64,000 nucleotides of DNA from Alphaproteobacteria bacterium (GCA_017960855.1 JAGCYJ010000012.1:5434-69433); one strand, 5' to 3'; shown: positions 2,126 to 59,593, counted from the first letter of the stretch. The notes: generated from the sequence alone by a model not told the origin. A program made the numbers and translations.

Positions 2126-2156
2126 AAACAACCGCCCGATTGGGCGGTGTTTTTTA
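2126..2156. terminator. Bidirectional rho-independent terminator
   Basis: Stem accgccc(2131-2137), loop gatt, stem gggcggt(2142-2148). An A-run lies upstream and a T-run downstream. It sits between convergent genes. Confidence 0.8.
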
Positions 2157-3243: not shown

Positions 3244-3309
3244 TGTTTATGTTTTTTTAGATAAAATGCAAAACAAAATGGTAAAAAAACTTTTTTTTGG
3301 CCTTTTTTG

Positions 3310-3318
3310 TGGTATAAT
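3310..3318 (+). promoter_or_regulatory. Extended -10 element TGgTATAAT upstream of 3347 gene
   Basis: tggtataat at 3310-3318. The RBS ggggga (3334-3340) and the ATG at 3347 follow. Confidence 0.5.
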
Positions 3319-3346
3319 TAAAGTATTTAAAATGGGGGGACTCCTG

Positions 3347-9726: not shown

Positions 9727-16390
<6,664 letters not shown>

Positions 16391-24820: not shown

Positions 24821-24823
24821 TAA

Positions 24824-24848
24824 CATAAAAAACCGCCCAAACGGGCGG
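24824..24848 (-). terminator. Rho-independent terminator of the Cys-rich operon
   Basis: ccgccc-aaac-gggcgg. On the minus strand it is followed by ttttttatgtt. Confidence 0.75.
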
Positions 24849-24864: not shown

Positions 24865-27800
24865 TTATTTCTGTTGATTTATCAGTCCTGTGACTGCACC
24901 GACCACGATGTTTGATCCTGCCACGGTGTTAAGCAAATTTGCTAAGTTTACAAAATTAGTGGTGCAAGACCCAGCTAGCATTTTGATATCAACACGACGA
25001 CATTCTTGGTTGGCTTTAGAAGCACCTGCAGCCGGTTCTGGACATTCAGTAGCAGCAATGCCATATGAGCGAATAGAATCATTTGCGAACACGCCCTTCT
25101 TTGCAAGATAATCCGCAACTGCCTTGGCACGATCAGTAGACAATTGCTGGTTGCCACCACCTTTACCATAATATTTGCTTGTGGATTTGAATCCCTGATG
25201 ATCCGTTTTTCCTATAATCACGATGCAATAATCTTCCGGTTTGCTTAAATCTATATTTGTTGCTTTTGCATCCGTAATAAACGTATCTAACAGGGTAGTA
25301 TCTTTTAGAGTAGCTTTTCCAGAGTCAAACAAAGCGTGTTGTGTGGCATCTGCACGCAATGACGCTTGGGCAAGCGATGTACCTGTATTGGAAGCGGTGT
25401 GTGCGCAGGTTCCATCTGCTTGCGTAGTATATCCTGCTGTGGTGTTGCATGTGCAATTGCCATTTGTGTCGCTTGTATACCCCCGGGCACTATCGCAAAT
25501 ACAGCTGTTCTCGTATTCTACATACCCAGCACTTGTGTTACATGTACATTTGTTGTTACCTTCTTCAATTGCTCCTGCAACACATTTGCATTCTTGTTGT
25601 TCTTTAAGGTGTGCGGCAAGTTTACATTCCTGTGGGAGATCGTTCCCCAGGGTAGGTTCCTGAGCTGGTGTAACAGGAAGTTCTTCTACGCATTGCCCAT
25701 CCTTTTCAATTTTTGTTGAATCAGCGCAAATACAACCATTTTGTTCATCATTCACCCTGAATCCAGGACCGCATTGTATACAGCCGTCGTTTGTTAGATA
25801 TGCATTTTGGGCAGTACAGCGACAGTTTTTCAAATTTGATCCTGTTGCGCCTGGGTACATTTCTGCACAGGTTTTTTCAGGTTGTTTGTTGTCAGAATCT
25901 TGCATATGTTCAAACGGTTGTTTCATTAGTTCGTATTTCTTAATAATTTCATCTGACTTATTCGGATTGTCATGATTAACAACATAATTCGCAACACCTG
26001 AACCGACCGCACCAACACCGGCAACGACCGCACCCGCCACCAACTTCTTTTGAGTCGCAGCCCTTTGTGCAGCCCACATAGCTGCATCTTCGCCATCAGG
26101 GTACAATATAGCGCGTGCAATGGATGCATACACGCCACCGTCGATACCATCTGGGGTATATTCATACAGGCCCGTTTCTGATTTATCAATTACAACTTCG
26201 GATTCAATACCCGGACGGATACCCAACGCTTCTTTGCGTATCTTCAAATCGTTCGCCAGTTGAGCATATTCTTGGTACAGTTCAATCATGTCATTACCGC
26301 CCGGCAATTCAACATTGACTTCGCCACCCTTGATATTTTTACCGTCACCATATTCACAGTGGAATGTTTGCAGATAAGCTGCCATTGCTTGTTCTGCACT
26401 AATATCTGCTGCACGTTCAGACAGCGCCGAACCAACCATTGTACCGCCGATACCGGTCATACCAATACCCGCCGCACCAATTATACGGTTTTCCAGCGAT
26501 GTTTCTTTGTCGCGCATCTTTTGTGCATTGTCGGCCAAAGCAGCGACTTTTTCTTGGTATTGATCTTTTGTAAGGACCATTTTTGCATTACATGCCAAAC
26601 CACTTGGACTGATTTCATAGCCATTTTCACATGCGGAAACAACACATTCCAGTTTATCGTTTAATATACCAGCGGTCGCATGTTCAGGTAATTGCGGGCA
26701 GGGCATACCAACACTGGATTTGCAGGCACCATCAACCAATGTATACGCTGGTTCGTCGCATCCCGTCACTTTACAGAATTCAACACAGGCATTTTCTGAC
26801 TGGCATGCGCTTGCATCTTTTTCTTCGCCACTGGACGCGTCTTTACATGCACGTGTTGCAGCCGTCGCACCGGTCGGCATAGGATTGCACTTTGTATCAG
26901 ACCATGCTTTGCATTTCTGTTCGGTCTTGTCCCAAATCATACCGCAACCGCAATAATCGCAACTGTTGTTAGGTTCGTTCAAATTATAACCCTTGTCGCA
27001 AGCTGTAATTTTACACTCGGTGGCAACACCATTAGGGTCTTCTTTACTTATTTCAAGCTTGGACGCATGTGGGTATTTACTCAACAAATTATCTGGGCAT
27101 TTTTTGCCGATGTGATCGCTTTTTTGGACACAGCCCGTGTATGTTTTTGTTTGGTTATCCCACTGTGGTTCATAATTTGAACCTTTACATATTGGTTTGC
27201 AGACCATTTTACCAGATTTTTGTTCCCAAGTACCCTTGGCTTCGGCATGGTCTTTGTTGCCTTCGAAATCACAGTTGCCGTTTGGTGCCGTACAAATATT
27301 ATTTACGGTGTCTGGGGTATAAGGATCTTCGCATTGCTGGACAACACAAACCTCTTTACATTTCTCACCCTTGGCACAGGTCAGGTTAAATGCTTTATTG
27401 TTGTTTTGGCACATAAGTTTGCCCATACCAGTGGCATGTGCCGGCAAGCCCTTGTTGCACTGTCTGGCGGTATCATCTTTGTCTTTGCATTGACCCTGGC
27501 CACTGTAAACTTGGCCACAGCCACATTTAGAACTGACGCACATTTTACCGTCTTCTACATCCAAATTATCCTTACATTTCGTAATCTGACAGGTCTTTAC
27601 AGATCCATCGGAATTACGTTCTGTGATAACACCATCATCGGCCTTGGGATCCATTTTAGATAATATATCATCTGGACAAGTTTTCTTTACTTCTTCGCAT
27701 TTGCGGGTTTTCTTGCTGACTTCATACCCAACGGCAGCACCACAATCTTTCGGTACACAAATCTTTTGACCATTTTTCGTCAGTTCCCAGAAACCTTCTT

Positions 27801-30465
27801 TTGATGCATATTGACCACCATCCGTCACAGTACAGTCAGAATCAATGGAAACACAGATTGCGTTTTTGAGTCCCTTGTCGCCGTCCTTGATCTCAAACAG
27901 GGCGCTTTCACATGTGTCAATATAGCAATATGCTTGTTTAGGTGTTGAATTATCGCATGCCATGTGTGCTTTTTTCGCATTGTCGGGCAAACGTGGGTCG
28001 GAACGCTTGTCGCATTGTGGCGGATTATTACCCCATGCTGTACAATTTTTCTTATCACTGGATAAATTATAACCGCATTCACACTTGCTGATTATACATT
28101 CGCCACGTTTGTTAGTTGTGGTTTCCAGTGCATGATTTTGTGATATCAACTGCTTTTCTACTTCGTCTGTACATTTTTTAACACAAGTTTCGCCGTTTTC
28201 ATCGGGAACTTTTGTTTTATCTGAACATTCAGTTATTTTGCATGTCGCAATATCGCCAGTATTGACATTCCAATATTTATCATCTGGTGTTACTTCCATC
28301 TTTCTGGCGTCGGGATTTGTTATGCGATTTGGGCAAGTTTTTTTATCAAACACACATTCATACGCGGTGCCATTTAATTTTGCTTTATAGTTTTCCCAAC
28401 ACACAGGTTCGCAAGCGATAACATCATTCTTTGTACGTACTGCTTTACCTTTCAAATGTGTCTTTGCGTGGGGCAGGTTGGCATCAATATCACAAGGTGT
28501 GCCAGCAACACGAACACAATGATTTTTGCCATCAGTGCCTTTTTGGGCTTCATAATCTTTGGAATCGCAATCGTCAATTTCACATGCGGTTATTTGCCCA
28601 CCAACGAAAGCGGTTACATGACCTTTGTCCGCATGATCATCACCAGTTAGGCGTTTTAATGTACTGCCATTGCATGGTTTGCCGATTTGGTATTCACACT
28701 TTGCATTACATTTATCATTAGCATGTCCGGCGGCATCACATTTTTGTGACATACCCAAAGCATACTTATCTACGGCATAGCCATCTTCACACGATTGCAG
28801 TTCACATACACCGTTGTTGATAATTGCGGCGGTCGCATGTTGGATATAATCTTTACAATCTGTACCAGTTGTTGATAAGCAAACTGCGTTTTCACCGCTG
28901 CCGTTCATTGCGTATTTAGGCGTATCACATTCCGTCGGATAACAATATTTTGAATAATCCAATGATTGTGCTGTTTCATTCGCCGACGGAGTGGGTGCAT
29001 TAGATTTAAGGGCGGCGGCGGTTGCATGAAGGTAGTTTTTGGCCCTTGAAGAAGAACAATCAACAACACACGCGCCACTTTGTTCACGGAATCCGTCAAG
29101 ACAATTTCTGGCAACGCACCTGTTGTTGTCAACCGTCACATCGCGTGCAAAAGGTACATCACTTTTTTGACAGAGTTTACAATAAGCGTCCACGGTGTTC
29201 TGGCGTTCCAATGTGTAGCCGCCCAAACAAGCAGCAGGTATGCATTTTTCATTATTTAAAACTTTAACCGCCGTTGCATTAAATTGTTTTTTTTCGGCTT
29301 CTCCACATTTAACCGCAGAAATAGTGGCCGCGTCAATAATATTAGAATCTGGTTCCAAACGAATAACTATTCCGCTACGCAATTCGCTAGCTGGTATAAT
29401 CCTTGTTTTATACTGTAGATAGGATACTTCTGCATCAGCATTCCTTGGGAAGTTAATTATTTCAAAATGTCCGTCTGTGTCTGCTACTGCGGAATTGTGG
29501 TGCTCTAGTGTCTGACCACGTGGAGAAATCGTGGCACCAATGGCAGGTTCACTATTTTCAAGTAAAATGGTTCCTGTTATGGTGTTCAAGGCGCCTGTGC
29601 CAGAACCGTCGGTGCCACTTGAAGTATTACGAGTGGTCGAACCACTGCCGCTAACATTGCGGGTCGGTGTAGAATTGTAATTAGCATACGGTATACGCTT
29701 GCCATTATCGGATTCAGATACCGTTGTTTCATACTGCGGTTGGTCTTTGGCTTGGAACAACAAAGTGCAATGACCTTTTTTGAAAACACATTTTATTGTG
29801 AAGTTTCCTTCGGGATTGCTTTTGGCTGGGGTACTGCTTCTGTTATTCTTATCTGTGATGGTGACGTTAACCAATGGTTTGTAATTACCAGAGGATGCTT
29901 CATACACAATCTTTGCACTAAAATCTTTTGTTTCATCGCCCGCTGTTGTGGTGCCCGATGAACCGCCACCAGTGCGGGTTGTGGAGGTTGTCGAACCGCC
30001 ACCTTTACGAGTTGAGTTATTTTTGTATTTTACATGAACCTGCAAACTCTTAAAGTTATCGGGGTTAAAATTCTTTGGAATCTTTATTGGATCTGGATTT
30101 GCATAAGTTTCCAGTGCTTCTTGGCTTATAATATCAAAATAAAGTGTACCCGATTCTTCTGGTTTAAGGGCTAAACTAAATGTTGGAGAACCCGTATATG
30201 CATTTGTTGTCAATGTTTTAGCATTTTTATCATCAGGCACGAAACGTATCGTAACCCGAGGGAGAAAGGGTTCGTAGCTTTCTGGTTGTACAATGGTTCC
30301 GCCTATTATTATATAGTCTTGAAGCCGTTGTGGAATATACTGACATACTATTTGACCATTCGTTATGGCACATTGGTTTGCTTTAATGTCAAGAAATTCC
30401 GCAGCAAGCGCCGCATTGACCCCAGATAATACAAATAAAAATGCAAATAATATCTTCTTCATCAT
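24865..30465 (-). CDS. Giant (1866 aa) cysteine-rich envelope protein with C-terminal OmpA-like domain, family member E
   Basis: The signal peptide is MMKKILFAFLFVLSGVNAALAAE. There are at least 14 repeats of a C-x4-C-x2-GY-type module and glycine-zipper segments (AAGIGMTGIGGTMVGSAL; AGAVVAGVGAVGSGVA). CxC-N-x2-AGY EGF-like repeats are present. The C-terminus reads GKTDHQG...NQQLSTDRAKAVADYLAKKG...ECRRVDIKM, which is OmpA_C-like. Confidence 0.85.
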   Translation of the reverse strand: MMKKILFAFLFVLSGVNAALAAEFLDIKANQCAITNGQIVCQYIPQRLQDYIIIGGTIVQPESYEPFLPRVTIRFVPDDKNAKTLTTNAYTGSPTFSLALKPEESGTLYFDIISQEALETYANPDPIKIPKNFNPDNFKSLQVHVKYKNNSTRKGGGSTTSTTRTGGGSSGTTTAGDETKDFSAKIVYEASSGNYKPLVNVTITDKNNRSSTPAKSNPEGNFTIKCVFKKGHCTLLFQAKDQPQYETTVSESDNGKRIPYANYNSTPTRNVSGSGSTTRNTSSGTDGSGTGALNTITGTILLENSEPAIGATISPRGQTLEHHNSAVADTDGHFEIINFPRNADAEVSYLQYKTRIIPASELRSGIVIRLEPDSNIIDAATISAVKCGEAEKKQFNATAVKVLNNEKCIPAACLGGYTLERQNTVDAYCKLCQKSDVPFARDVTVDNNRCVARNCLDGFREQSGACVVDCSSSRAKNYLHATAAALKSNAPTPSANETAQSLDYSKYCYPTECDTPKYAMNGSGENAVCLSTTGTDCKDYIQHATAAIINNGVCELQSCEDGYAVDKYALGMSQKCDAAGHANDKCNAKCEYQIGKPCNGSTLKRLTGDDHADKGHVTAFVGGQITACEIDDCDSKDYEAQKGTDGKNHCVRVAGTPCDIDANLPHAKTHLKGKAVRTKNDVIACEPVCWENYKAKLNGTAYECVFDKKTCPNRITNPDARKMEVTPDDKYWNVNTGDIATCKITECSDKTKVPDENGETCVKKCTDEVEKQLISQNHALETTTNKRGECIISKCECGYNLSSDKKNCTAWGNNPPQCDKRSDPRLPDNAKKAHMACDNSTPKQAYCYIDTCESALFEIKDGDKGLKNAICVSIDSDCTVTDGGQYASKEGFWELTKNGQKICVPKDCGAAVGYEVSKKTRKCEEVKKTCPDDILSKMDPKADDGVITERNSDGSVKTCQITKCKDNLDVEDGKMCVSSKCGCGQVYSGQGQCKDKDDTARQCNKGLPAHATGMGKLMCQNNNKAFNLTCAKGEKCKEVCVVQQCEDPYTPDTVNNICTAPNGNCDFEGNKDHAEAKGTWEQKSGKMVCKPICKGSNYEPQWDNQTKTYTGCVQKSDHIGKKCPDNLLSKYPHASKLEISKEDPNGVATECKITACDKGYNLNEPNNSCDYCGCGMIWDKTEQKCKAWSDTKCNPMPTGATAATRACKDASSGEEKDASACQSENACVEFCKVTGCDEPAYTLVDGACKSSVGMPCPQLPEHATAGILNDKLECVVSACENGYEISPSGLACNAKMVLTKDQYQEKVAALADNAQKMRDKETSLENRIIGAAGIGMTGIGGTMVGSALSERAADISAEQAMAAYLQTFHCEYGDGKNIKGGEVNVELPGGNDMIELYQEYAQLANDLKIRKEALGIRPGIESEVVIDKSETGLYEYTPDGIDGGVYASIARAILYPDGEDAAMWAAQRAATQKKLVAGAVVAGVGAVGSGVANYVVNHDNPNKSDEIIKKYELMKQPFEHMQDSDNKQPEKTCAEMYPGATGSNLKNCRCTAQNAYLTNDGCIQCGPGFRVNDEQNGCICADSTKIEKDGQCVEELPVTPAQEPTLGNDLPQECKLAAHLKEQQECKCVAGAIEEGNNKCTCNTSAGYVEYENSCICDSARGYTSDTNGNCTCNTTAGYTTQADGTCAHTASNTGTSLAQASLRADATQHALFDSGKATLKDTTLLDTFITDAKATNIDLSKPEDYCIVIIGKTDHQGFKSTSKYYGKGGGNQQLSTDRAKAVADYLAKKGVFANDSIRSYGIAATECPEPAAGASKANQECRRVDIKMLAGSCTTNFVNLANLLNTVAGSNIVVGAVTGLINQQK

Positions 30466-30471
30466 ACTTTC

Positions 30472-32850
30472 CTACTGCAGTAAACGATACGCGAATGTGC
30501 ATTTGCTTTGGCCAGTATAGGTAACTTCGCATGTGCTGTTTGAACCAGAACAAATGGACTTATCAAGTTGAAGGCAAAATGCACCGTGTTCGTTAGCGGT
30601 ACTATTTTTTAATGTCGGATAATCTAGATGAAGGTAATATTTAATGCCGGTAGCAGAAGGTGAGTTTTCCACAGCAGGATAACCGAGACCGACATTGCTA
30701 TCTTTGTTCATAGAACTTTCCACAAACAAACGTATTTTTTCGCGTTCTGTGGAATCTGTGACTCTAATATTATTCGCCTGTAACTTATTCATAATGGTGG
30801 TGAACAAATCGGTATCGTTTTTGTCAATCGACGCCTTCAAACTTTCCGTGGCAGCTGCTTTCGTAATATCAGATTCCGCGATTTTCAATATCACAGTTGC
30901 TGGAACATCTTTTGCTTGTATTTCTTCGTCTTGATAGTTATCAGTTGGCAAAAGTAAAAACTGAATTATTTGTTCTGAATCTATATCGTCAATGGTATAT
31001 TTACCATCTGATCCTGTTGCTACTTCGGCATCAGAATCTTTTGCACCAACCCTTACACCAGAAACACCGTTACCATCTGGATCTACAACCCTTCCTGAAA
31101 GAGTACGTGTTTCGGCATCATATGCCATGTCAAGATCTGTAAGATTTGCCCCTTTGGCAAATATTGTTGATTCGTCTTCGGCGATAAATTGTCCCGATGT
31201 CAATGTTGCCGTTCCCAAAGAAGACACGTTGAAATTACGATCAAACGAAATGCAACCATATTCTTTGTCAAAGTGTTGTTTGCTGGGGTCTGGGCACGCA
31301 CATGTATTTTGTGATGACAACCAAGTTCCCTTTATACCACCTTTTGAACCTTCACAGATTTTCTGTAATTCGTCACTGTGCAGAGAATTCGAGATTTGGT
31401 TCGCCTGTTTACTAAGCTCATCCATGGTCTTAGTTGACCCTTTCTTTGTTCCTTCTTCTTTATCTGTATCAGTTTCGTCCAAGGTACCAACTTTGGCAAG
31501 GCATTCTTCTTCGGTCATGTCGCCATCTTCCATGCATTCTTTTAATCCTGCTTCATAGTCCTTTTCTGCCTTGTACCGGGCAATCGCACGATCAATTGCG
31601 CCAGATGTAAGCGCACCAACCGCTTGGCCAACACCAGAACCCAACATGGCCGAAGATGCCGCCGTCTGGGCACGTGTTGCGCGGAACGCATTTTCGCGGA
31701 ATGTTGTTATGTCAATTCCAAACCAATTTTGTGTGCAGTCAAATGTTGAACCTGCATATGCTTTCTTGGATGCATATAGTGTAGAATCCCCGTTGGCATA
31801 GAAATTCACCGTATAGACGCAATCTAAACTGCGTTCGTCAAACATTGCGCCCAAACGTGTGCAAACGGAACGCATCTGTTCGCGCAAATCATATAATCTG
31901 CGTTCATCGGTCGCAATTTGACGTTCGGCATTTTGACGGACTTCGCCGAATACAGACATTGTACGCATTGCCAAGCCAGAATCATATTCAACACATGATT
32001 TTGCGATGTTTTCACATTTTCTTATTGCTTCGTCGCCCGCGCTTTTACCAATACACTTGGAATAGGTCGCGCCACATTGTGCAATGATACAGGTGTCATA
32101 ATTGTTTCCGCAATCAATGGTCGCGTTGTACACCGCCAATTTTGCGTTCAAATCGCGATCGGCCTTGATTTCAGCAGAAAGTAATTGGTATTCATGACCA
32201 GTGCAATTTGTTGTGCGACGGCATGTATCCATTTTGTCAAAGAAAGTTGTGTCTGTGTCTGCAACACATTTGCCAAAATTAGAACCACATTTTTGTATCA
32301 TGCATTCGCGCAACATGCTATCGCAGGCATTTTCGCCAGTACCAGATAAGTCGGTTGCCATAACCTTGGCCGCAGATACTGTATCCGCTGCATCCAGCGC
32401 GGCACGTTGAATACGAACCAATTCAGCCAATGTTGTCGCCGAAGAATCAAGTTCAGATGACGATTGCGATGACAATGTTGTACTAAATTGTGACGACTTG
32501 TTTTCAACCTTGGATGTATCAGCAACAAATTCTTCTTTCTTTTGTGTTTGCTGTGACGAAGAACTGGTCGTTGTGGTTGTCGTCGTAGTTGTTGATGACG
32601 ACGAAGTTGAATTTGACGTAGATGATGAATTAGAGGTTGATGTGCCTTTAGAAGAGGAACCAGAACCTGTCTTGACCGACATTGTTGGCATACGCGAAGC
32701 CGCAGATGTTGGGCGCGATGCAGATGCCTTGGCCGTGGTTGATGACGGACGTGGAACCACATTAGCCGCCGTCGCATCCGCAAACGTTGCCAAGACAGCA
32801 ACAATTATGCCATAAATGCTTTTGTTCAAGATTCCGTTTCTGTACATCAT
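30472..32850 (-). CDS. Cysteine-rich secreted/envelope protein, family member D
   Basis: 792 aa. A signal peptide is present, followed by a Ser/Thr-rich tract (SSSTSNSTSSSSTTTTTTTTT). C-x6-C-x4-C motifs are present (CDSMLRECMIQKC, CGNNYDTCIIAQC), as is a glycine zipper (LGSGVGQAVGALTSGAI). A CarboxypepD_reg-like segment is present (LSGRVVDPDGNGVSGVRVGAKDSDAEVATGSDGKYTIDDI). It lies 6 nt upstream of member E. Confidence 0.85.
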   Translation of the reverse strand: MMYRNGILNKSIYGIIVAVLATFADATAANVVPRPSSTTAKASASRPTSAASRMPTMSVKTGSGSSSKGTSTSNSSSTSNSTSSSSTTTTTTTTTSSSSQQTQKKEEFVADTSKVENKSSQFSTTLSSQSSSELDSSATTLAELVRIQRAALDAADTVSAAKVMATDLSGTGENACDSMLRECMIQKCGSNFGKCVADTDTTFFDKMDTCRRTTNCTGHEYQLLSAEIKADRDLNAKLAVYNATIDCGNNYDTCIIAQCGATYSKCIGKSAGDEAIRKCENIAKSCVEYDSGLAMRTMSVFGEVRQNAERQIATDERRLYDLREQMRSVCTRLGAMFDERSLDCVYTVNFYANGDSTLYASKKAYAGSTFDCTQNWFGIDITTFRENAFRATRAQTAASSAMLGSGVGQAVGALTSGAIDRAIARYKAEKDYEAGLKECMEDGDMTEEECLAKVGTLDETDTDKEEGTKKGSTKTMDELSKQANQISNSLHSDELQKICEGSKGGIKGTWLSSQNTCACPDPSKQHFDKEYGCISFDRNFNVSSLGTATLTSGQFIAEDESTIFAKGANLTDLDMAYDAETRTLSGRVVDPDGNGVSGVRVGAKDSDAEVATGSDGKYTIDDIDSEQIIQFLLLPTDNYQDEEIQAKDVPATVILKIAESDITKAAATESLKASIDKNDTDLFTTIMNKLQANNIRVTDSTEREKIRLFVESSMNKDSNVGLGYPAVENSPSATGIKYYLHLDYPTLKNSTANEHGAFCLQLDKSICSGSNSTCEVTYTGQSKCTFAYRLLQ

Positions 32851-32865
32851 TTTAACACAATCCGT

Positions 32866-33726
32866 TTATTTTAATGTAGAACACGCTATGTCATAGAACT
32901 TGCACAACTGGGTCGCCATTGACCGTTCAGATGGATGCGCTTCGTCACACTGGTTCGGCATACTGCGGTTACATATTGATATTATACACGCATCGCGTCC
33001 GGAATTGTCCTTGCACGATTGGGTAATAGATGCCAAACGTTTTTCACGTGCATCGCGATACGATTGAACAAGTGCCAACAGCGCATTTTCTGCGTTTTTT
33101 ATGGCATTATCACGTGCCGTCATCAATGTTGTACGAATGTCCGCCAAATATTCGTCGCACCCAGTGGCCGCCACAGAACATTCAGAAAAATACCGATTGA
33201 AATCAGAATCTTCGGCACAAGCACTGTACCTAGATGTACATTTTGCATTACCAACAACGCACGCTGTGATTTCCGATGAACATGTTGCAGATGTCTTTTT
33301 CTGGCGTGCTTTTTCAAACAAAACAGACATTTGGGCGGTAATTCCCGCAGCAGTACACGACTGTTCAATCAGGGAATCATAGGTTTCAGATACGTCGTCC
33401 GCCGTACAACCGTCAATCATTGTTATACACTTCTTGGATGCCCAAACATAACGCTCTCCTGGGTCAGTTGGGGCATTTTTTAGATCCTTGGACGATATGG
33501 TAAACCGCGAAGATGTTCCAACAGAAACAGCCCGCATTCCCGCGTCGTTCGGTTCGCCCGCGTCCGCCGTACCACAGTATTGACATCGGGCCGCCGGATT
33601 GGACGATACATTAATGGCACACGCAGAATCCAGACAACGCGTCAAATTCGCGCGTGAACACGCCGTGTGCCCCATATTTGGCACCAGCGCAAAAGCAAGC
33701 ATTATAAAAGCAGTTTTCTTTATCAT
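32866..33726 (-). CDS. Cysteine-rich secreted protein, family member C
   Basis: The ATG at 33726 (ORF track starts at 33849) gives the signal peptide MIKKTAFIMLAFALVPNMGHTA. Motifs CSRANLTRCLDSAC, CSSEITACVVGNAKC and CKDNSGRDACIISIC are present. It lies 15 nt upstream of member D. Confidence 0.8.
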   Translation of the reverse strand: MIKKTAFIMLAFALVPNMGHTACSRANLTRCLDSACAINVSSNPAARCQYCGTADAGEPNDAGMRAVSVGTSSRFTISSKDLKNAPTDPGERYVWASKKCITMIDGCTADDVSETYDSLIEQSCTAAGITAQMSVLFEKARQKKTSATCSSEITACVVGNAKCTSRYSACAEDSDFNRYFSECSVAATGCDEYLADIRTTLMTARDNAIKNAENALLALVQSYRDAREKRLASITQSCKDNSGRDACIISICNRSMPNQCDEAHPSERSMATQLCKFYDIACSTLK

Positions 33727-33801
33727 TTCTCTCTGATGCTTGATTATATCAAAAATAAGGGGCGGGTGCAAAGGGAAAAAAACAAAATTGCATTTTATCT
33801 C

Positions 33802-33860: not shown

Positions 33861-34544
33861 ATGGCTAAAAAAGGTACAAGTTTTTGGGTTAATATCGGTT
33901 CAGGCGCTATTGCTGTGTTGGCAATTGCCGCGATGATTGTCGCTACATCCAAGTGCAGCGGTGCCGAACAAGAAAACACACAAACTGCCAGGGCATTGGC
34001 TTCTGCTCGTGCTGAAATTGAACAGAAAGATGAAACAATTGCTGATTTGAATGAAGGCATCGAATATTTGAAAGCAGAAAATAAGATGCAGAAAGATTCT
34101 ATTGATGTAATGAACCAATTTAACAAGGACATCAAGGCGGAAAATGATTCTTTGAAAGTGAATTGCGTACAAAAAAAGAAAAAAACCGCAAGAAAACCTG
34201 CAGCAAAACCTGCAGCTAAGCCGGCAACAAAACCATGTGTGACACCATCTGTTACAGTTGTGTCTGGCGATAAAAAGGTTGTTGTTGGTGCATGTGGCGA
34301 AGAAAAGCCATCTGTCAAGGTCACTTCTGCTGAAAAGAAAGTTGTTGTTTGCGGACAAGATGAAACCAAAGATCAAGGTCGTGTTATCGTGAACGGTGAC
34401 AACAACGGTCAGATTATTGTTAATACAAATGGTATCGTTGAAGCAAACGGTAATGTTAATGGTCATGACAATAACGTGAACAGTGCAAGCAAGGGTTCGC
34501 TTGAAGGATATGCGATTGTCAGAAGCCGTGCGAAATGCCGTTAA
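33861..34544 (+). CDS. Hypothetical membrane-anchored coiled-coil protein
   Basis: 227 aa. The N-terminal TM segment is GSGAIAVLAIAAMIVATS. A heptad-like region follows (EIEQKDETIADLNEGIEYLKAENKMQKDSI), then a KPAAKPAAKPATKP linker and an Asn/Gly/Val-rich C-terminus. Confidence 0.7.
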   Translation: MAKKGTSFWVNIGSGAIAVLAIAAMIVATSKCSGAEQENTQTARALASARAEIEQKDETIADLNEGIEYLKAENKMQKDSIDVMNQFNKDIKAENDSLKVNCVQKKKKTARKPAAKPAAKPATKPCVTPSVTVVSGDKKVVVGACGEEKPSVKVTSAEKKVVVCGQDETKDQGRVIVNGDNNGQIIVNTNGIVEANGNVNGHDNNVNSASKGSLEGYAIVRSRAKCR

Positions 34545-34572
34545 TATAAACAAGTATAGTTTAACATTGTGT

Positions 34573-34611
34573 AAAAATCCCTGTGGTGTTCCACGGGGAT
34601 TTTTATTTTTT
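34573..34611 (+). terminator. Rho-independent terminator
   Basis: aaaaatccctgtgg-tgtt-ccacggggattttt, followed by attttttt. Confidence 0.8.
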
Positions 34612-34664
34612 GCTAGACAGGGTTGCGAAATATATGCTAATATTAAAAGCACAGAGAGAAATTG

Positions 34665-37600
34665 ATGAGATTTATGCGGATTTTCGGTTTTTTACTGTTT
34701 TTGTTGCCGATGGCATCATTTGGCGCGACTAATGAATTTATGGTTGCTGCACAGTTGTTGTCTGCGGCAAAAAATGCCGATATCCAGCAGGTTCAAGCCC
34801 TTATCAACAACGGTGCAAATGTAAATTATGTTGATTCAACGGGGCTGTCAATCGTGTGTACCGCATTGATGAATAACGATGTACGCGCGGCTCAGATATT
34901 ACAAATGTATGGTGCTGATGCGGCAAATTGTGATCGCCAGATTAAACAGTATAATTCAAGGAACAAACCCGAACGAAGCGGGGGATTGTTCGGTGGGTTA
35001 TCCTCGGCCCAAAGCATAACATTAGCGGCGGCGGGTGCCGCCGTTATCGTTGGTGGACTTTTTTTGTTGACCGATGTGTTTGATCCAGGCAACAGCAACA
35101 AGTCATCGTCCAGTGGATCACACGGTGGTGGTAATGGTGGTGGTAATGGCGGTTCGTCTGCAACGGTGGCGTTTACTTTGCCGTACGGTCCCGCAATGAC
35201 AGATGCCAAGGCCGAAAATTCTGACTATGTGAACAATTTGAATTTTTACAGTCCATCTGATGAAAACAGTTCTTATTACAGAAATTACACATTGATGAAC
35301 AATTCCGCGATAACCCAGAATTATTTGCTGATGATGCATGGCTATTCGGCGTTGGCGCGTGGATATAATGGGCTGCAGACATTGCGGTATAAAGATTCTG
35401 CATATTCGCCGGTGCCAAGGACGGTGTTAAACGGTTATGCGGTTTCGGGCTATACGGTTGAAGGTGGGCGTCCGGTAAATGTCGCGCTGATAACCGCCAA
35501 CGGTATCAATATGCATGGAAAACCGGCGGGCGAAATAACGGCAGCGGTTGATTCATTGGACGATCGTTTTGTTGCGTGGACCGCGCTAAATGGTTCTTCG
35601 TTGATTGAACCCGAATACACCAATTTATCCAGTAAATATTACAACAATGCAATTACCTTTGGCGAAGATGCCGCGAACAAGGTTGCCGATGCAACAACAG
35701 CCGAAGATGGAATGATGGTTGATTTCTTTGATTTGTCGGGTAATGGAACTGCGGTCGCTAATACGGATGCGACAGACTATGACAATTTGTTGGCCAAGGT
35801 TGTGGCTGGTGCTAATTCCGGTTTTTCGGGTGCCGACTATATGGGCTTTATGCCGTATGGGCAACTGACGATATTTCGCACGGGTGGTGGTGTGGACAGT
35901 AATGGCGACCCAACGGACTATTATAATTACAAGGCATTAAGAAATGCCGCGACTTTATATGCGGCGGGGGATTTGACCGCGCGTTCACATCCCGAGATTT
36001 TTGCAAACTTGGATGTGATTGACCCGTTGCATGCGTTTGATGCCCCAACCATAGAAACATTGTTGTCAAACAATCCAGATATGACAAAGAAAGATTTATA
36101 TCAGGCCGCTTTCTCTGTATATGTGAATTCTATGTATGGCGATGATGATACAACATATCAGCCCGGAACAGATTCTTATTACTTCTTCAATAATTTAGGT
36201 TCCGCTTATTTGCCATTGGTGTTGTTCTCTACTGGTGCGGTGGAAACGAATTCAACGTATTCGGGCGAAGCAAAGGTGGCGACATTTGAAAATGCTGCGC
36301 CATTGGTGTATGACAATTTGGAACATTTGTTTGCGTCCATTGTTGCAGTGGGGCAGACAGGAACTGCTTATACTGGAAATATCGCCAGTTATACGCCGTC
36401 GGGTAAATATGCACTTATGCAGTGGCAGAACACAAATGGTACTGCCGACGATGCATCTGATGATACATACTATCGTGCGCGTATGTGTGGCATTGCGGGA
36501 TTTGGTTTGGGTGATATTGATCCATGGTGTTTTGCATCTGTTGGTATGACGGATGAATTAGCGGTCGCTTCGGCTGCGGGTGCGTTCGGCGCGATGAAAT
36601 CGGCTTTTCCGTATTTAAGTAATAAACAAATATTTGCGCTGGCGGCTTTGACCGCGGACGGTGCTTATTTGGGAACACTGGACGGCAAAGCGGCGACCAA
36701 GGATGTGCTGACTTCTTATCTGCAGGGTTTATATATATTGCCAGATGAATATCAGGTATATGTTGACGGTGGCCATATGACGTATCTGGATGCTTTCAAA
36801 GAAGTGTTTGGTTATGGTTTGATAAATGTTGAACGCGCAACGACACCGGGCAAAAGCATACATTATTATAATGGCGACAGCATTGTTGCGGCATCGGGAA
36901 ATGCATATTGGCGTGCGGCGACAAATACCGCGTTTCGTTCTTCGTCCGCGTTCGGTGCGCGTGATGCGACATTAAGAACATCTGCGTATGATGTTTTGAC
37001 CAGTGTTGATGGTGAATTGTCTTTGCCACGTGTCTGGACAAGTGAATTTACAATTGGTGCGAATTCTAAACATGGTTTGTATATGGGCGACGTGTTGGGC
37101 GAATTGCGGACACGCGACGAAGCGGACAACCGTATTCAAATCGGGCAAATGGGATTTTCAATGACGACATCACAACGCGCCTATGCCGACAGTATGGGTG
37201 GTTTGGATAATATGAAATTGGATTGGACGTCGGGCGATTGGAACTTTGCCGCCGGCTATCAACGTCACTTTACTGATGGGGCATCACGGTTTACGGGGTT
37301 AAGTAATCCGATTTTGGGATTGGCATCAAACGCGGTTATATCGGATGCAAAATATAACTTTGGTAAATGGTCATTTGGTGCGCGTGCTTTTTCAGGAAAT
37401 GTGACGGATGAATCTTTGTTGGAAAATGATCCGACAATTGCGGCGAACTATGAACCGGCGCGTCTGGGGTTTGTTCGTGGTGCGGGTGCCAGTGTCGGTT
37501 GGAAAAACGACCGCTTTGCGTTTGATACAACAGTTGGAACGGCAAATGAAACGAATACGGTACTGGGTGCATATACCAATGGCTTGTTGGGCATGGGTGC

Positions 37601-38081
37601 TGGTGAAACGGTCTATGTCGACAACGAATTGCGTTTCCGTCCGACCGATAGTTTGACACTGACGGCGCGTGCGACATTCGCGCGGACAACAACTGACGGG
37701 GCGGGGGGATTGGTAATGGGCGTGTCGCCATTGGAATCAAATGCGTTCGCGTTGGGCGCCGATTGGGGTAATTTCCGGTTCAGTGTGGCGCAACCGTTGG
37801 CGGTTCGTCATGGAAGTTTGAAATACGCATATGCTGATTACAATGTTGTTGATACAGACGACGGCAATTTTGCGCTGGATATTGCGGACACCCATGTCGC
37901 GGATATAGATTTGAGTGCACGTACCCGCGAAGTGCGTTTCAGCGGTGAATATCGCCATAATTTTGGGACATTTACCGATGGTGCATTGGGCTTTATATAC
38001 CGCGTAAATCCGAACAATACGGATGAATTCGGTAATGAATCCATCTTTATGATGAAACTGACACACCGTGTCGGGATTTAG
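34665..38081 (+). CDS. Ankyrin-repeat / subtilase-like / beta-barrel outer-membrane protein (autotransporter-like)
   Basis: The signal peptide is MRFMRIFGFLLFLLPMASFGA. ANK-like repeats are present (AAKNADIQQVQALINNGANVNYVDSTGLSIVCTALMNNDVRAAQILQMYGADAN). A hydrophobic segment AAAGAAVIVGGLFLL and a Gly/Ser linker follow. S8-like remnants are present (GMTDELAVASAAGAFGAMKSAFPYLS; FGYGLINVERA). The C-terminal ~330 aa are beta-rich. Confidence 0.65.
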   Translation: MRFMRIFGFLLFLLPMASFGATNEFMVAAQLLSAAKNADIQQVQALINNGANVNYVDSTGLSIVCTALMNNDVRAAQILQMYGADAANCDRQIKQYNSRNKPERSGGLFGGLSSAQSITLAAAGAAVIVGGLFLLTDVFDPGNSNKSSSSGSHGGGNGGGNGGSSATVAFTLPYGPAMTDAKAENSDYVNNLNFYSPSDENSSYYRNYTLMNNSAITQNYLLMMHGYSALARGYNGLQTLRYKDSAYSPVPRTVLNGYAVSGYTVEGGRPVNVALITANGINMHGKPAGEITAAVDSLDDRFVAWTALNGSSLIEPEYTNLSSKYYNNAITFGEDAANKVADATTAEDGMMVDFFDLSGNGTAVANTDATDYDNLLAKVVAGANSGFSGADYMGFMPYGQLTIFRTGGGVDSNGDPTDYYNYKALRNAATLYAAGDLTARSHPEIFANLDVIDPLHAFDAPTIETLLSNNPDMTKKDLYQAAFSVYVNSMYGDDDTTYQPGTDSYYFFNNLGSAYLPLVLFSTGAVETNSTYSGEAKVATFENAAPLVYDNLEHLFASIVAVGQTGTAYTGNIASYTPSGKYALMQWQNTNGTADDASDDTYYRARMCGIAGFGLGDIDPWCFASVGMTDELAVASAAGAFGAMKSAFPYLSNKQIFALAALTADGAYLGTLDGKAATKDVLTSYLQGLYILPDEYQVYVDGGHMTYLDAFKEVFGYGLINVERATTPGKSIHYYNGDSIVAASGNAYWRAATNTAFRSSSAFGARDATLRTSAYDVLTSVDGELSLPRVWTSEFTIGANSKHGLYMGDVLGELRTRDEADNRIQIGQMGFSMTTSQRAYADSMGGLDNMKLDWTSGDWNFAAGYQRHFTDGASRFTGLSNPILGLASNAVISDAKYNFGKWSFGARAFSGNVTDESLLENDPTIAANYEPARLGFVRGAGASVGWKNDRFAFDTTVGTANETNTVLGAYTNGLLGMGAGETVYVDNELRFRPTDSLTLTARATFARTTTDGAGGLVMGVSPLESNAFALGADWGNFRFSVAQPLAVRHGSLKYAYADYNVVDTDDGNFALDIADTHVADIDLSARTREVRFSGEYRHNFGTFTDGALGFIYRVNPNNTDEFGNESIFMMKLTHRVGI

Positions 38082-58814: not shown

Positions 58815-59492
58815 TTATTGCGGTATTTGTCCTGTGCCGTGAACGTTGGCATACATGCTGTTGAATATGGCATCGGCATCTTCTTGGGTTGCTGGATATG
58901 AAGTATAACCCATTTCATAATTTGCGCCATTCAAAACAATCAATGTTGGTGTTTCACCAGCGCATTGGATGTAATAACGTGCCGGATCATAATATTTACC
59001 ATAACATTTACCATTTCCAACCGCCACATAGCCAGCATCAGCCAATGTTTGGCAATCTGGTTGTGTACCATATGTGATTTCACCGTTTTCAATTACTTCG
59101 TCAACTTGGTCCAAAATACCAGAACACCAAACACGAACCATCTGACCATTTACAGATGCCATTGAACCGTCGGTTGAGGTTTTGCGGACACCAAAACAAT
59201 CGCCGTTCAATACATTCAAGTCATAGTCCGAGTTTGTAAGTGTTCCACGTGATAATTCTGTGCGACCAACCGGCATAGTTTCATCAGTGTTTTTAAGCGC
59301 TTCGCCACAAATCATTTTCATACCCCAGCAATTCGCCCACGCATCCCACAGGCCTGCATCATAACCAGTGCCCATAGATGTATAGCAGGTTGCCGGATTT
59401 ACACGACAAACGGTTGGCTGTTCCCACCAGGGCGTTGCAGCAACAACATTCGTCGTTATAAAAAGTAAAGAAAGCAAAAATATTTTTTTCAT
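58815..59492 (-). CDS. Hypothetical secreted Cys/Trp/Tyr-rich protein
   Basis: 225 aa. The signal peptide is MKKIFLLSLLFITTNVVAA. There are nine Cys by hand count. It lies 100 nt downstream of family member F on the same strand. Confidence 0.7.
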   Translation of the reverse strand: MKKIFLLSLLFITTNVVAATPWWEQPTVCRVNPATCYTSMGTGYDAGLWDAWANCWGMKMICGEALKNTDETMPVGRTELSRGTLTNSDYDLNVLNGDCFGVRKTSTDGSMASVNGQMVRVWCSGILDQVDEVIENGEITYGTQPDCQTLADAGYVAVGNGKCYGKYYDPARYYIQCAGETPTLIVLNGANYEMGYTSYPATQEDADAIFNSMYANVHGTGQIPQ

Positions 59493-59593
59493 ATTTACAT
59501 TCCCGTTGTGTATATTTTATCAGATTTTATGGTTCCCTGCAAGTTGCTTTATTACAAACTTTATGGTTCAGGTTCAAACAAGGGATTGGTTGT

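Follow-up and report, generated by a model that had tools for sequence, protein, structure and literature searches.

Three adjacent genes for cysteine-rich proteins in an uncultured gut bacterium raise the question of what their products build at the cell envelope. An initial annotation of the locus had read them as an undescribed structural scaffold, exported, disulfide-bonded and tethered to peptidoglycan, conceptually similar to the chlamydial cysteine-rich outer-membrane complex. We analysed the genes within a stretch of 64,000 nucleotides (GCA_017960855.1 JAGCYJ010000012.1:5434-69433, hereafter the window) together with related loci, which partly confirmed the observations made in that annotation and partly supported their interpretation. 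The source organism is a Candidatus Enterousia-like alphaproteobacterium of the order Rs-D84, whose genomes are smaller than 1 Mb. Bacteria of this order have been described as obligate symbionts or parasites, their genomes lack standard transporters, and metabolite uptake from other cells has been proposed for them; the source organism is a gut fermenter without respiratory chains (PMC12306168).

A three-gene operon is conserved across related genomes

ORF analysis recovered the same three co-directional genes as had been annotated, here named A, B and C (286, 792 and 1866 aa), with gaps of 15 nt between A and B and 6 nt between B and C (Table 1). A longer, TTG-initiated ORF is present at gene A, but the ATG start agrees with all orthologs. 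The promoter-like site just upstream of A has a TG directly preceding its second hexamer. Downstream, the single terminator said to close the operon was found 3' of C, where a G+C-rich hairpin is followed by a T-run (24848-24833, minus strand), 17 nt past the stop codon.

Table 1 Features of the locus and its surroundings, in nucleotide positions of the window
Feature	Position	Strand	Basis or remark
Gene E	35..2125	+	5' end cut by window start; relatives ~820-1010 aa
Gene F, 351 aa, cysteine-free, N-terminal hydrophobic helices	2154..3209	-	D-F-E order in relatives
Gene D, 714 aa, Cys-rich, two glycine zippers	3266..5410	+	Motif, hhalign
Intrinsic-terminator-like hairpin CCGCCCGTTTGGGCGG and T-run	24823..24848	-	Downstream of C
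Gene C, 1866 aa, 107 cysteines	24865..30465	-	ORF, HMM, ortholog alignment
C, OmpA_C-like peptidoglycan-binding domain, aa 1712-1828	24982..25332	-	Pfam, NCBIfam and PDB matches
C, C-x-C / EGF-like stalk, aa 1533-1687, from zipper 2 to OmpA_C	25405..25869	-	Cysteine pattern
C, conserved middle, aa 1297-1530	25876..26577	-	Ortholog alignment, AF2
C, variable Cys-repeat region, aa ~380-1292	26590..29328	-	Greatly expanded relative to orthologs
C, CarboxypepD_reg-like beta-sandwich, aa 295-374	29344..29583	-	Pfam HMM, E 1e-9
Gene B, 792-aa mosaic protein	30472..32850	-	ORF, ortholog alignments
B, strain-specific replaceable cassette, aa 456-668	30847..31485	-	DNA breakpoints, protein alignment
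B, glycine zipper, aa 396-421, consensus AsSAxlGsGxGxaxGaxTSGAixRA	31588..31665	-	Alignment of 73 orthologs
Gene A, 286-aa exported (predicted) all-alpha protein, 20 cysteines	32866..33726	-	ORF, homologs, AF2
Promoter-like site before A: TTTGCA, 18-nt spacer, TATAAT	33743..33772	-	Consensus match only
227-aa gene, N-terminal hydrophobic segment and coiled coil	33861..34544	+	Divergent from A
Ankyrin gene, 1139 aa, divergent neighbour	34662..38081	+	Tied to operon by synteny only
Genes G and H together	58815..62299	-	Just past ankyrin gene in 12 relatives
Gene H, 225 aa, 9 Cys	58815-59492	-	
Gene G, 901 aa, 40 Cys	59594-62299	-	Paralog of E

The gene neighbourhood is kept in relatives: B follows A in 85/85 related loci, and a C-type gene lies downstream in 48 of the 55 loci that were long enough to tell, although shared gene order carries little weight in reduced genomes with such high synteny. 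Gene A is encoded by 257 species genomes. The ratio dN/dS was low: A gave 0.025 and the B core (described below) 0.043, compared with 0.034-0.055 for housekeeping neighbours; purifying selection on A and the B core is as strong as on those neighbours. Genes A, B and C are real, functional genes, kept as one unit under strong purifying selection.

Signal peptides and cysteine parity point to exported, disulfide-bonded proteins

By inspection, the N-termini of A, B and C look like Sec signal peptides; each has an AxA-type cleavage site and lacks a lipobox. This feature, which had been described as a classical signal peptide on all three proteins, is conserved in orthologs and supports their predicted export. 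Cysteine content reaches 7.0% in A, 3.2% in B and 5.7% in C, whereas housekeeping ORFs of the window have 0-1.7%. The motif C-x6-C-x4/6-C had been assigned to all three proteins; we found it twice in A and twice in B (composition-shuffle means, 0.13 and 0.05), while C has zero occurrences.

Cysteine counts per domain are nearly always even, as seen in the B tails (164/167), the N-terminal region of C (37/44) and the C-terminal region of C with its stalk (40/44), which argues for intradomain disulfides. The heavy disulfide bonding proposed earlier thus gains statistical support from sequence. Two conserved regions have odd counts: the B core has exactly 15 cysteines in 177/178 orthologs, and the middle of C has exactly one in 39/44. 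The unpaired cysteine in each is a candidate for an intermolecular bond. Two relatives without a C gene, L089 and L090, still have an odd number of cysteines in the B core (15 and 13, respectively), so a B-C disulfide is not required. The oxidising periplasm assumed in the initial annotation is not a given in a gut fermenter of this type (PMC12306168), and the absent respiratory chain counts against a disulfide-locked reading.

Conserved cores are combined with replaceable segments in B and C

The A protein consists of three 6-Cys modules (C-x6-8-C-x4-6-C-x6-11-C-x12-14-C-x5-6-C) that are homologous to the Cys modules of B. We found 670 homologs of A; all 20 cysteines are invariant across 55 aligned sequences, and a count of 20 was found in 78 of 82 A sequences. 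The spacing from the AxA site to the first cysteine differs among orthologs. An AF2 model of A is helical (pLDDT 76.5), and neither the sequence nor the fold of this model matched the PDB.

In B, the signal peptide leads into an S/T-rich linker, then two A-like 6-Cys modules and an F-x-C-x2-N-W-F-G motif; after these come the glycine zipper, the variable cassette and a domain at the C terminus. Its conserved core spans approximately aa 100-455. At the cassette, the DNA identity shared with L086 and L087 (93.4%) and with L088 (98.1%) ends abruptly at 31483, and similarity to L088 picks up again at 30846. Strains that differ in the post-zipper part of B have flanking DNA that is 93-98% identical, and dS is 0.45 for aa 669-792 (the 124 aa downstream of the cassette) versus 0.03-0.06 in the flanks. 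Across 178 orthologs, the tails of B are decoupled from the cores: where two cores are at least 95% identical, the tails are alignable in only 65% of pairs.

From its N-terminus, the C protein has a signal peptide, then beta-sandwich domains and a Cys-repeat region, followed by a middle with two zippers, a C-x-C stalk and an OmpA_C domain. CarboxypepD_reg-like segments had been reported in both larger proteins. This holds for C, where PF13620 and PF13715 scored 39.0 and 35.9 bits (cut-offs 32.3 and 32.2) and the domain was found in 33-35 of 49 orthologs, but not for B, where the same models stayed below these cut-offs at 27.5 and 19.9 bits; the 27.5-bit match lies within the variable cassette. 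The repeat region of C contains 14 C-x4-C units, mostly of the form C-x4-C-x2-G-Y...C, and C also has C-x-C units; no repeats were found at the DNA level, and the units are too diverged for self-BLAST. C orthologs measure 465-1588 aa with 5-113 cysteines, which becomes a four-fold length range (465-1866 aa) when the C of the window is included, and the N-terminal repeat region is replaced or resized among near-identical strains. The conserved middle comprises a coiled coil, zipper 1, a ~125-aa domain with the invariant C1370 and zipper 2. Its AF2 model had a pLDDT of 63.6 overall and 76-89 for residues ~50-130 of the modelled fragment (C aa ~1346-1426); the middle had no sequence match in the PDB, and the model matched no fold there.

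The C terminus of C does match a known family. PF00691 (OmpA_C) aligned to aa 1712-1797 with 31.3 bits (Pfam cut-off 27.2), the region matched OmpA C-terminal domains in the PDB (E 2e-3), and the model matched 39/49 C orthologs, in agreement with the earlier claim that the last protein ends in such a domain. Its motifs are intact (GKTDHQG ... LSTDRAKAV ... RRVDI, i.e., TD...G and LSxxRA). The Asp and Arg of these motifs contact peptidoglycan in OmpA-like domains, and D1755 of C is conserved in at least 90% of the 49 orthologs. The domain thus supports the predicted tethering of C to peptidoglycan. Moreover, L089, which is a distant relative, encodes the B core with its zipper and OmpA_C in one protein (OmpA score 27.9 bits, cut-off 27.2), a fusion that we counted in favour of a wall-anchored complex.

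By contrast with the OmpA_C domain, A, the B core and the C middle had no match in Pfam, NCBIfam, PADLOC, PHROGs or PDB sequences. Together with the unmatched AF2 folds of A and the C middle, these searches bear out the view that the Cys-rich cores have no known family, and indicate that these conserved cores fall outside the families and folds described so far.

Zipper-like segments suggest placement in a membrane

B and C had also been credited with glycine-zipper segments. Gly/Ala-rich segments are indeed present: the zipper of B contains G-x3-G-x3-G (GSGVGQAVG), and C has two zipper-like segments (zipper 1, aa ~1326-1348; zipper 2, aa ~1474-1496) that are Gly/Ala-rich with irregular spacing. 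However, the Pfam zipper models tested (Gly-zipper_Omp, Gly-zipper_OmpA, Gly-zipper_YMGG and Rick_17kDa_Anti) matched neither B nor C at E <=1, nor any of 49 C orthologs at E <=0.01. The segments are only weakly hydrophobic (Kyte-Doolittle ~1.4-1.7). All segments that flank the zippers are Cys-rich and so probably lie outside the cytoplasm, which makes the outer membrane the most likely location. Two membrane passes would place the N-terminal region of C in the periplasm, which counts against working ends at the cell surface.

The operon is the core of a larger island

Although A, B and C were described as a three-gene unit, they form the core of an island that includes five or more further orphan genes in most genomes. 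The 227-aa gene has a strong terminator of its own (34571-34606) and a dN/dS of 0.18-0.28, and its synteny with A holds in those relatives that were checked (L004/L005, L075 and L086-L088). The ankyrin gene, which is adjacent to A in 81/85 loci, encodes a protein in which ankyrin repeats, a hydrophobic segment rich in Gly and Ala and a large unassigned region accompany a signal peptide.

D adjoins the A-B(-C) genes in most relatives. It has the pre-zipper motif AGxTFxCxxxxFG and the zipper in common with B (hhalign of D versus the B core, E 1.1e-4). In 25/31 D sequences, the segments set apart by the two zippers hold odd, even and odd numbers of cysteines. E combines A-like C-x6-C-x6-C-x6-C modules (A profile, E 0.002) with a long hydrophobic stretch rich in Gly and Ala and a tail that contains cysteines; its parity is odd plus odd, for an even total. 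We counted the parity patterns of D and E in favour of the zipper-held reading. F had no family match and no PDB match.

The proteins resemble known envelope systems in part

Glycine-zipper proteins of the outer membrane, including YiaD with its OmpA_C domain, are documented (bioRxiv 10.64898/2025.12.22.696046). Like C, proteins of the YiaD type (with the E. coli relatives SlyB, YfgH and OsmB) have a Gly/Ala-rich zipper followed by OmpA_C and a predicted role as a membrane element held to the wall, and they set a precedent for insertion of alpha-helical zippers in the outer membrane. Unlike them, B and C lack a lipobox and a lipid anchor, the zippers of C are single with a ~125-aa domain between them instead of forming a 2TM hairpin, and hundreds to more than 1000 residues of Cys-rich modules are present in a multi-gene set with A and B. 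The YiaD model NF053611 aligned through its own OmpA part only (model positions 94-205), with 32 bits versus a cut-off of 175.

The chlamydial complex (OmcA, OmcB and MOMP) likewise consists of exported Cys-rich envelope proteins, presumed to be disulfide-stabilised, in an obligately host-dependent bacterium. The chlamydial cysteine-rich OMP families in Pfam did not match A, B or C at E <=1, so the two are unrelated in sequence, as had been supposed. The likeness is conceptual only, as the organism studied here retains peptidoglycan synthesis and LPS export genes (PBP1a, SLT transglycosylase and LPS export). In contrast to the chlamydial complex, the system has an OmpA_C anchor and strain-replaceable cassettes, and no developmental cycle is known for this organism.

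TraN, which stabilises mating pairs for F-like plasmids, is a Cys-rich outer-membrane protein with ~22 conserved cysteines and predicted intramolecular disulfides, in which partner specificity is set by a variable beta-sandwich 'tip' on a conserved core (PMC9246713). B similarly joins a conserved Cys-rich core to a replaceable cassette able to hold a beta-sandwich, but its core is built of all-alpha Cys modules and carries a glycine zipper. No Pfam or NCBIfam match to TraN was found in A, B or C, and the operon does not lie among conjugation or type IV secretion genes; its neighbours are housekeeping and orphan genes. The C repeats, with the patterns C-x4-C-x2-G-Y...C and C-x-C-x4-G-Y, are reminiscent of the small disulfide-knotted modules in EGF-like or CPL1-like stalks, from which they differ in their bacterial periplasmic or surface setting. 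The CPL1-like model PF21671 matched 16/49 C orthologs (best E 7e-9) and cEGF matched 2/49, while the C of the window matched neither.

A wall-anchored complex with variable working ends is tentatively favoured

The reading that we favour, though tentatively, is a wall-anchored, disulfide-stabilised, zipper-held envelope complex that pairs conserved anchors with variable working ends and probably serves cell contact. A, B and C would be exported via Sec, with internal disulfides locking each domain, and OmpA_C would fasten C to peptidoglycan. The conserved parts (i.e., A, the B core and the middle, stalk and OmpA_C of C) would make up the wall-anchored base, to which A may belong as a soluble periplasmic partner or assembly subunit. 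The zippers of B and C may pack together and, with the paralogs D and E, keep the proteins within a membrane or at its surface. The working ends under diversifying pressure would be the B cassette and the repeat region of C; in an obligately partner-dependent bacterium, they would most likely touch or adhere to other cells or host surfaces, or form a protective coat that varies. The variability of B and C could also reflect relaxed constraint or phage pressure instead of adhesion. A bolder and rather unlikely extension is that the whole island (the ankyrin gene, A-F, with or without G and H) encodes a new envelope organelle, whose disulfide-locked, zipper-held base on the peptidoglycan would present exchangeable specificity modules at the surface for partner attachment and perhaps metabolite uptake. 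If so, all its conserved parts would be families and folds without described relatives.

Several other readings compete with a wall-anchored complex for cell contact. One is a static scaffold, in which a disulfide-cross-linked, wall-tethered lattice in the periplasm or outer membrane stiffens the envelope as in chlamydiae and the variable parts are mere spacers. We consider it unlikely, albeit with an appreciable chance of being right: high cysteine content, the parity evidence for disulfides, the OmpA_C anchor, the very tight conservation of A and the B core, and an abundance of paralogous Cys-rich envelope proteins, which take up ~26% of the window, all suit it, and the single unpaired cysteines in B and in C could cross-link molecules. 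A purely structural scaffold nevertheless leaves unexplained why folded B cassettes are swapped among near-identical strains and why C varies four-fold in length, neither of which is expected of a lattice with fixed geometry. Nor is there homology to OmcA or OmcB, and a cell with peptidoglycan synthesis and LPS export genes has no obvious need to replace its wall. The proteins might instead tether or stabilise the outer membrane on the peptidoglycan in the manner of YiaD, SlyB or OmpA, with the zippers embedded in that membrane, OmpA_C gripping the wall and the Cys-rich parts contributing only rigidity and length. The order of zipper, short Cys linker and OmpA_C in C and in the L089 B protein is that of YiaD, whose NCBIfam model matches the OmpA part, but the missing lipobox, the unmatched zipper part of that model and the failure of the Pfam zipper models on B and C make this doubtful, more so since A, the variable cassettes and the multi-gene island would be left unexplained.

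Transport or uptake across the envelope, with the island (ankyrin gene, A-C, D, F and E) forming a channel or bridge for partner-cell metabolites, appears improbable. It would suit the lack of standard transporters in Rs-D84 and the conserved composition of the island, which includes the cysteine-free F with its hydrophobic helices and a large exported ankyrin protein; however, it is drawn purely from context, and no known part of a secretion system, such as an ATPase, secretin or pilin, was found in the island. The arrangement of B, with a conserved N-terminal part and a replaceable cassette downstream, also recalls polymorphic toxins that join a delivery region to exchangeable toxic ends. 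We give this hardly any credence, because in this genome the cassette lies within B, ahead of a conserved C-terminal domain, there is no immunity gene, C begins 6 nt past B, no toxin family matched, and the cassettes are beta-sandwich or Cys-rich modules of a binding type. Finally, an anoxic habitat, the missing respiratory chain and regular cysteine spacing might suggest that the cysteines bind metals or clusters for redox or storage instead of forming disulfides. This, too, is very improbable: the even-number rule per domain fits disulfides and not metal sites, no CxxCH, ferredoxin-type motifs or conserved histidines were found, the signal peptides are of Sec and not Tat type, and a DsbA-like gene lies close to the island in some genomes, albeit in only 10 loci.

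Three putatively exported cysteine-rich proteins are encoded by a conserved operon

The initial annotation had described three co-directional genes, here named A, B and C, and our analysis bore out this layout: the ORFs are separated by gaps of only 15 nt and 6 nt, and C is followed by the reported terminator, a G+C-rich hairpin and T-run at 24848-24833. The predicted signal peptides are likewise supported for all three proteins by Sec-like N-termini with AxA-type cleavage sites, as is also the case in orthologs. Cysteine makes up 7.0% of A, 3.2% of B and 5.7% of C, whereas housekeeping ORFs in the window have 0-1.7%. An OmpA_C domain was found in C as annotated (Pfam, 31.3 bits against a cut-off of 27.2). 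The CarboxypepD_reg-like beta-sandwich attributed to both larger proteins held for C (39 bits, cut-off 32.3) but stayed below the cut-off for B (27.5 bits), and the C-x6-C-x4/6-C motif attributed to all three occurs in A and in B, two times each, and is absent from C, whose cysteine units are instead C-x4-C-x2-G-Y...C and C-x-C. The annotation was thus largely right; it was wrong about the motif in C, and the beta-sandwich in B is weak.

Features of the operon, its surroundings and the associated cysteine-rich genes
Feature	Position	Strand	Description
E	35-2125 (5' end cut by window start)	+	Large; Cys modules, long Gly/Ala-rich hydrophobic stretch
F	2154-3209	minus	Cysteine-free; hydrophobic N-terminal helices
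D	3266-5410	+	Cys-rich; two glycine zippers
Gene C	30465-24865	minus	1866 aa
Gene B	32850-30472	minus	792 aa
Gene A	33726-32866	minus	286 aa; start is the ATG used in all orthologs
Promoter-like site	17 nt 5' of A		Consensus-type match
Coiled-coil gene	33861-34544	+	227 aa; between A and ankyrin gene; own terminator at 34571-34606 (16-bp stem)
Ankyrin protein	34662-38081	+	Exported, 1139 aa; N-terminal ankyrin repeats, Gly/Ala-rich hydrophobic segment, large further region
H	58815-59492	minus	Exported, 225 aa, 9 Cys
G	59594-62299	minus	Exported, 901 aa, 40 Cys; E paralog; ends in C-x-C/EGF-like units and Gly/Ser tail

The three genes are kept as a unit: A is directly followed by B in 85/85 related loci, and a C-type gene comes next on the same strand in 48 of the 55 loci with sufficient downstream sequence. 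Compared with one strain of 93% nucleotide identity, dN/dS was 0.025 for A and 0.043 for residues 1-455 of B, while two housekeeping neighbours gave 0.034 and 0.055. These low values show that A and B are real genes under strong constraint. That the gene set is real and conserved is well supported.

A large protein collection held 670 homologs of A, from gut MAGs labelled 'Alphaproteobacteria bacterium', and a scan of species representatives placed A in 257 genomes, many of them Candidatus Enterousia and one a circular genome of 958,618 bp. The family is narrow, since its profile reached only 66 clusters among 1.84 billion representative proteins; its remotest members come from 'Rickettsiales' and 'Alphaproteobacteria' MAGs. 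Rs-D84 bacteria, including Candidatus Enterousia, are widespread in human and animal guts, where they are presumed to live off other cells (PMC12306168). Enterousia are uncultured, rod-shaped gut bacteria with genomes below 1 Mb that carry peptidoglycan genes, lack flagella, the TCA cycle and respiratory chains, and are probably obligate symbionts or parasites (PMC12306168). The window encodes LptB, LptC, PBP1a, an SLT transglycosylase and an outer-membrane beta-barrel protein, which indicates that the cell is a diderm with a wall. The operon accounts for about 1% of a genome of this size.

The conserved cores define new protein families

All 20 cysteines of A are invariant and fall into three 6-Cys modules, and AlphaFold2 predicts an all-alpha fold (pLDDT 76.5, above 85 in the C-terminal half). 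In B, the signal peptide is followed by an S/T-rich linker, two 6-Cys modules similar to those of A (profile-profile E 3.6e-4), a conserved F-x-C-x2-N-W-F-G motif, a conserved small-residue zipper and a tail. C comprises a signal peptide, beta-sandwich domains, a long Cys-repeat region, a conserved middle, a C-x-C stalk and OmpA_C. The middle (aa 1297-1530), the sole stretch of C well conserved among orthologs, consists of a coiled coil, a first zipper, a domain of ~125 aa with one invariant cysteine, and a second zipper. Among 49 C orthologs, OmpA was detected in 39, CarboxypepD_reg in 33-35 and a match to a CPL1-like Cys-rich model in 16. DNA tandem or direct repeats were absent from C and self-BLAST of the protein gave no match; its internal repeats are old and diverged.

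As the initial annotation had stated, the cores belong to no recognised family: Pfam, NCBIfam, PADLOC and PHROGs gave no match for A, the B core (~aa 100-455) or the middle of C, and the only matches anywhere in the three proteins were CarboxypepD_reg and OmpA. PADLOC matched A to PDC-M01B at E 0.0018, which we attribute to chance. The PDB sequence searches, which used profiles for A and for the middle of C and the single sequences of B and C, returned only OmpA C-terminal domains. Fold comparison against the PDB with Foldseek, which covered the A model and that of the middle of C (pLDDT 63.6 for the latter), yielded no match (best E 2.5-3.4). The recognised pieces of A, B and C are thus generic only (signal peptide, beta-sandwich and OmpA_C), and the conserved cores represent new families with no structural relative, folds having been compared for A and the middle of C.

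Profile-profile comparison detected no similarity of the middle of C to the B core, A or D. The sequence C-x-Y-G-D-G in C resembles C-R-V-G-D-G in D, but this likeness was dropped because of the last of these results. D and B have both the zipper and the motif preceding it in common (hhalign E 1.1e-4), and for D, E and F neither families nor PDB entries matched. The set defines three or more new protein families: the helical 6-Cys module found in A, B and E, the pre-zipper module common to B and D, and the two-zipper middle of C.

Two short N-terminal features also stood out. The motif S/G-R-M-P-[ST]-M lies 25-45 residues past the signal peptide in B (aa 52-57, ~32680-32697) and D (aa 75-80, ~3488-3505); within the window RMP[ST]M occurs in these two ORFs only, and a strict pattern search recovers it from 33 of 72 B orthologs. 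The motif may serve in sorting, processing or attachment. B is also unusually conserved over its first mature residues, DAxAANVVxR.

Cysteine parity supports intradomain disulfides

Unpaired cysteines would leave the count per domain even or odd at random. Counts here were far from random: A has 20 cysteines in 78/82 orthologs, the mutually unrelated B tails (the part after the zipper) have an even number in 164/167, and even numbers are found in the N-terminal region of C in 37/44 and in its C-terminal region in 40/44. Binomial p-values for parity were extreme, uncorrected for relatedness among the sequences. These even counts support the view that the cysteines form intradomain disulfides, and with it the heavy disulfide bonding proposed by the initial annotation. 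The two exceptions are the B core, with exactly 15 cysteines in 177/178, and the middle of C, with exactly one in 39/44. This pattern points to one unpaired cysteine each in B and C as a candidate intermolecular bond, with the caveat that the B core is also odd (15 and 13) in two distant genomes that have no C.

In 25 of 31 D orthologs, 9 cysteines precede the first zipper, an even number (4-12) lies between the zippers and 7 follow the second. E has an even total in 17/17 orthologs and an odd count on either side of its hydrophobic stretch where this could be delimited (6/17). Parity thus predicts a disulfide bridging both sides of the zipper region in D and E, which would place all zipper-flanking segments outside the cytoplasm and would argue against inner-membrane helices with cytoplasmic loops. 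The zippers would then lie either in or on the outer membrane, for which the SlyB, YfgH and YiaD zippers, described as outer-membrane, offer a model, or pack as helices outside any membrane.

These counts raise the question of how a non-respiring anaerobe oxidises more than 150 cysteines in A, B and C alone. Genes for a membrane-anchored, DsbA-like thioredoxin-fold protein (CPYC) and a SurA-like chaperone lie near the island in some genomes; the DsbA-like gene occupies 594-1415 in L001-L003 and lies ~9.5 kb upstream of A in 10 loci, and none was found in the 64-kb window.

The ends of B and C are variable

DNA similarity to three near-identical strains (93.4%, 93.4% and 98.1% nucleotide identity) ends exactly at 31483, corresponding to B codon ~456 just past the zipper, and in one of the three it resumes at 30846 and continues into C. 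Downstream of this replaceable cassette (aa 456-668), B residues 669-792 show a dS of 0.45, compared with 0.03-0.06 in the core of B and the first part of C, which points to a past exchange with a divergent allele by recombination. Core and tail are uncoupled among 178 B orthologs: tails could be aligned in 65% of pairs with core identity of at least 95%, 39% of pairs at 85-95% and 9% of pairs at 70-85%. Trans-specific sharing of tails was not seen, as no pair with core identity below 65% had tails with an alignment of 60% identity or higher covering 70% or more. C orthologs are 465-1588 aa long with 5-113 cysteines; none is as long as the C of the window (1866 aa, 107 cysteines). Such a combination of conserved anchors and exchangeable ends would be expected where outside pressure, from partners, host immunity or phages, acts on the ends.

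The contigs of the three strains (L086-L088) all stop within B, shortly past its end, or near the beginning of C. Assemblers tend to break contigs at strain-variable regions, and these ends fit within-sample hypervariability of the B cassette and C repeats.

The gene set extends beyond A, B and C

Two distant relatives have one B homolog following A (B-core HMM E 1e-64 and 4e-60). One of them, a 'Rickettsiales bacterium' MAG (GCA_031283185.1), has no C gene, and its 721-aa B homolog (11035-13200) carries a C-D-C-D-C motif past the zipper and ends in OmpA_C (27.9 bits, cut-off 27.2); the B homolog of the other is without OmpA. By this fusion, the B core is itself tied directly to the wall anchor. 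In both relatives, the gene upstream in divergent orientation is a homolog of D (41-42% identity).

D, F and E lie immediately 3' of C in most Enterousia loci (31, 27 and 40 loci, respectively), an ankyrin-repeat protein gene divergently adjoins A in 81/85 loci, and homologs of G and H are found beyond the ankyrin gene, near the operon, in 12 loci. The window holds this island as three separate pieces, with every piece present, and about a quarter of its 64 kb encodes Cys-rich exported proteins. An autotransporter label for the ankyrin neighbour was dropped, as its ankyrin repeats alone matched and no barrel or autotransporter family was found.

A tentative model for the operon products

Housekeeping-like conservation of A and the B core, swappable modules and an orphan envelope island make this gene set a prime candidate for the lineage's cell-contact or envelope machinery. 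From sequence patterns, we tentatively propose, as the likeliest mechanism, a disulfide-locked, wall-pinned zipper bundle with replaceable working ends. A, B and C would be exported by Sec, with internal disulfides fixing each domain. B and C, together with D and E, would pack through their zippers into an outer-membrane-associated bundle; C, via its Cys-knot stalk and OmpA_C, would pin this bundle to peptidoglycan, as would B itself in deep relatives. A would be a soluble partner of the B core. The working ends would be the replaceable B cassette and the expandable C repeat region, probably serving contact with partner cells or host surfaces, or forming a variable coat. TraN of F-like plasmids, a Cys-rich outer-membrane protein in which a variable tip determines partner specificity (PMC9246713), is a working analogue.

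The static cross-linked scaffold of the initial annotation shares the predicted disulfides and wall anchor with this proposal; set beside the replaceable ends, we consider it somewhat unlikely. A YiaD-like tether from outer membrane to wall would draw on the zippers and OmpA_C, and is improbable given the whole gene set. We strongly doubt that the proteins are components of a trans-envelope uptake apparatus. A polymorphic toxin, suggested by the exchangeable B tails, and a metal-binding role, which would call on cysteines that parity assigns to disulfides, both carry very low weight. The general kind, wall-anchored Cys-rich envelope or surface proteins, is already known, and a truly new attachment organelle is unlikely. 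The disulfide-locked bundle can be tested by what it predicts: particular disulfides, binding to peptidoglycan and exposure at the surface.

Further genes in the window encode putative surface or envelope proteins. A giant trimeric autotransporter adhesin (46148-50938, plus strand) has a YadA anchor, a beta-helix and Chlamydia PMP repeats, and a second giant surface protein (11000-16390, plus strand; ~1770 aa) has G/T/N repeats and a barrel-like end and gave no match in the family search. A second OmpA_C protein (7684-9183, plus strand; 499 aa) has a lipoprotein-like signal (LVAVAAC) and 13 cysteines, and is preceded by a 270-aa exported protein (6791-7603) with 7 cysteines and a Gly/Ser-rich tail. 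Finally, a 269-aa ORF (23913-24722, minus strand) lies 3' of the operon terminator and has a basic N-terminus and a hydrophobic segment; the family search gave no match for it. With its own promoter-like site at 24777-24750 (11/12 match), it appears to be a transcription unit separate from A, B and C.
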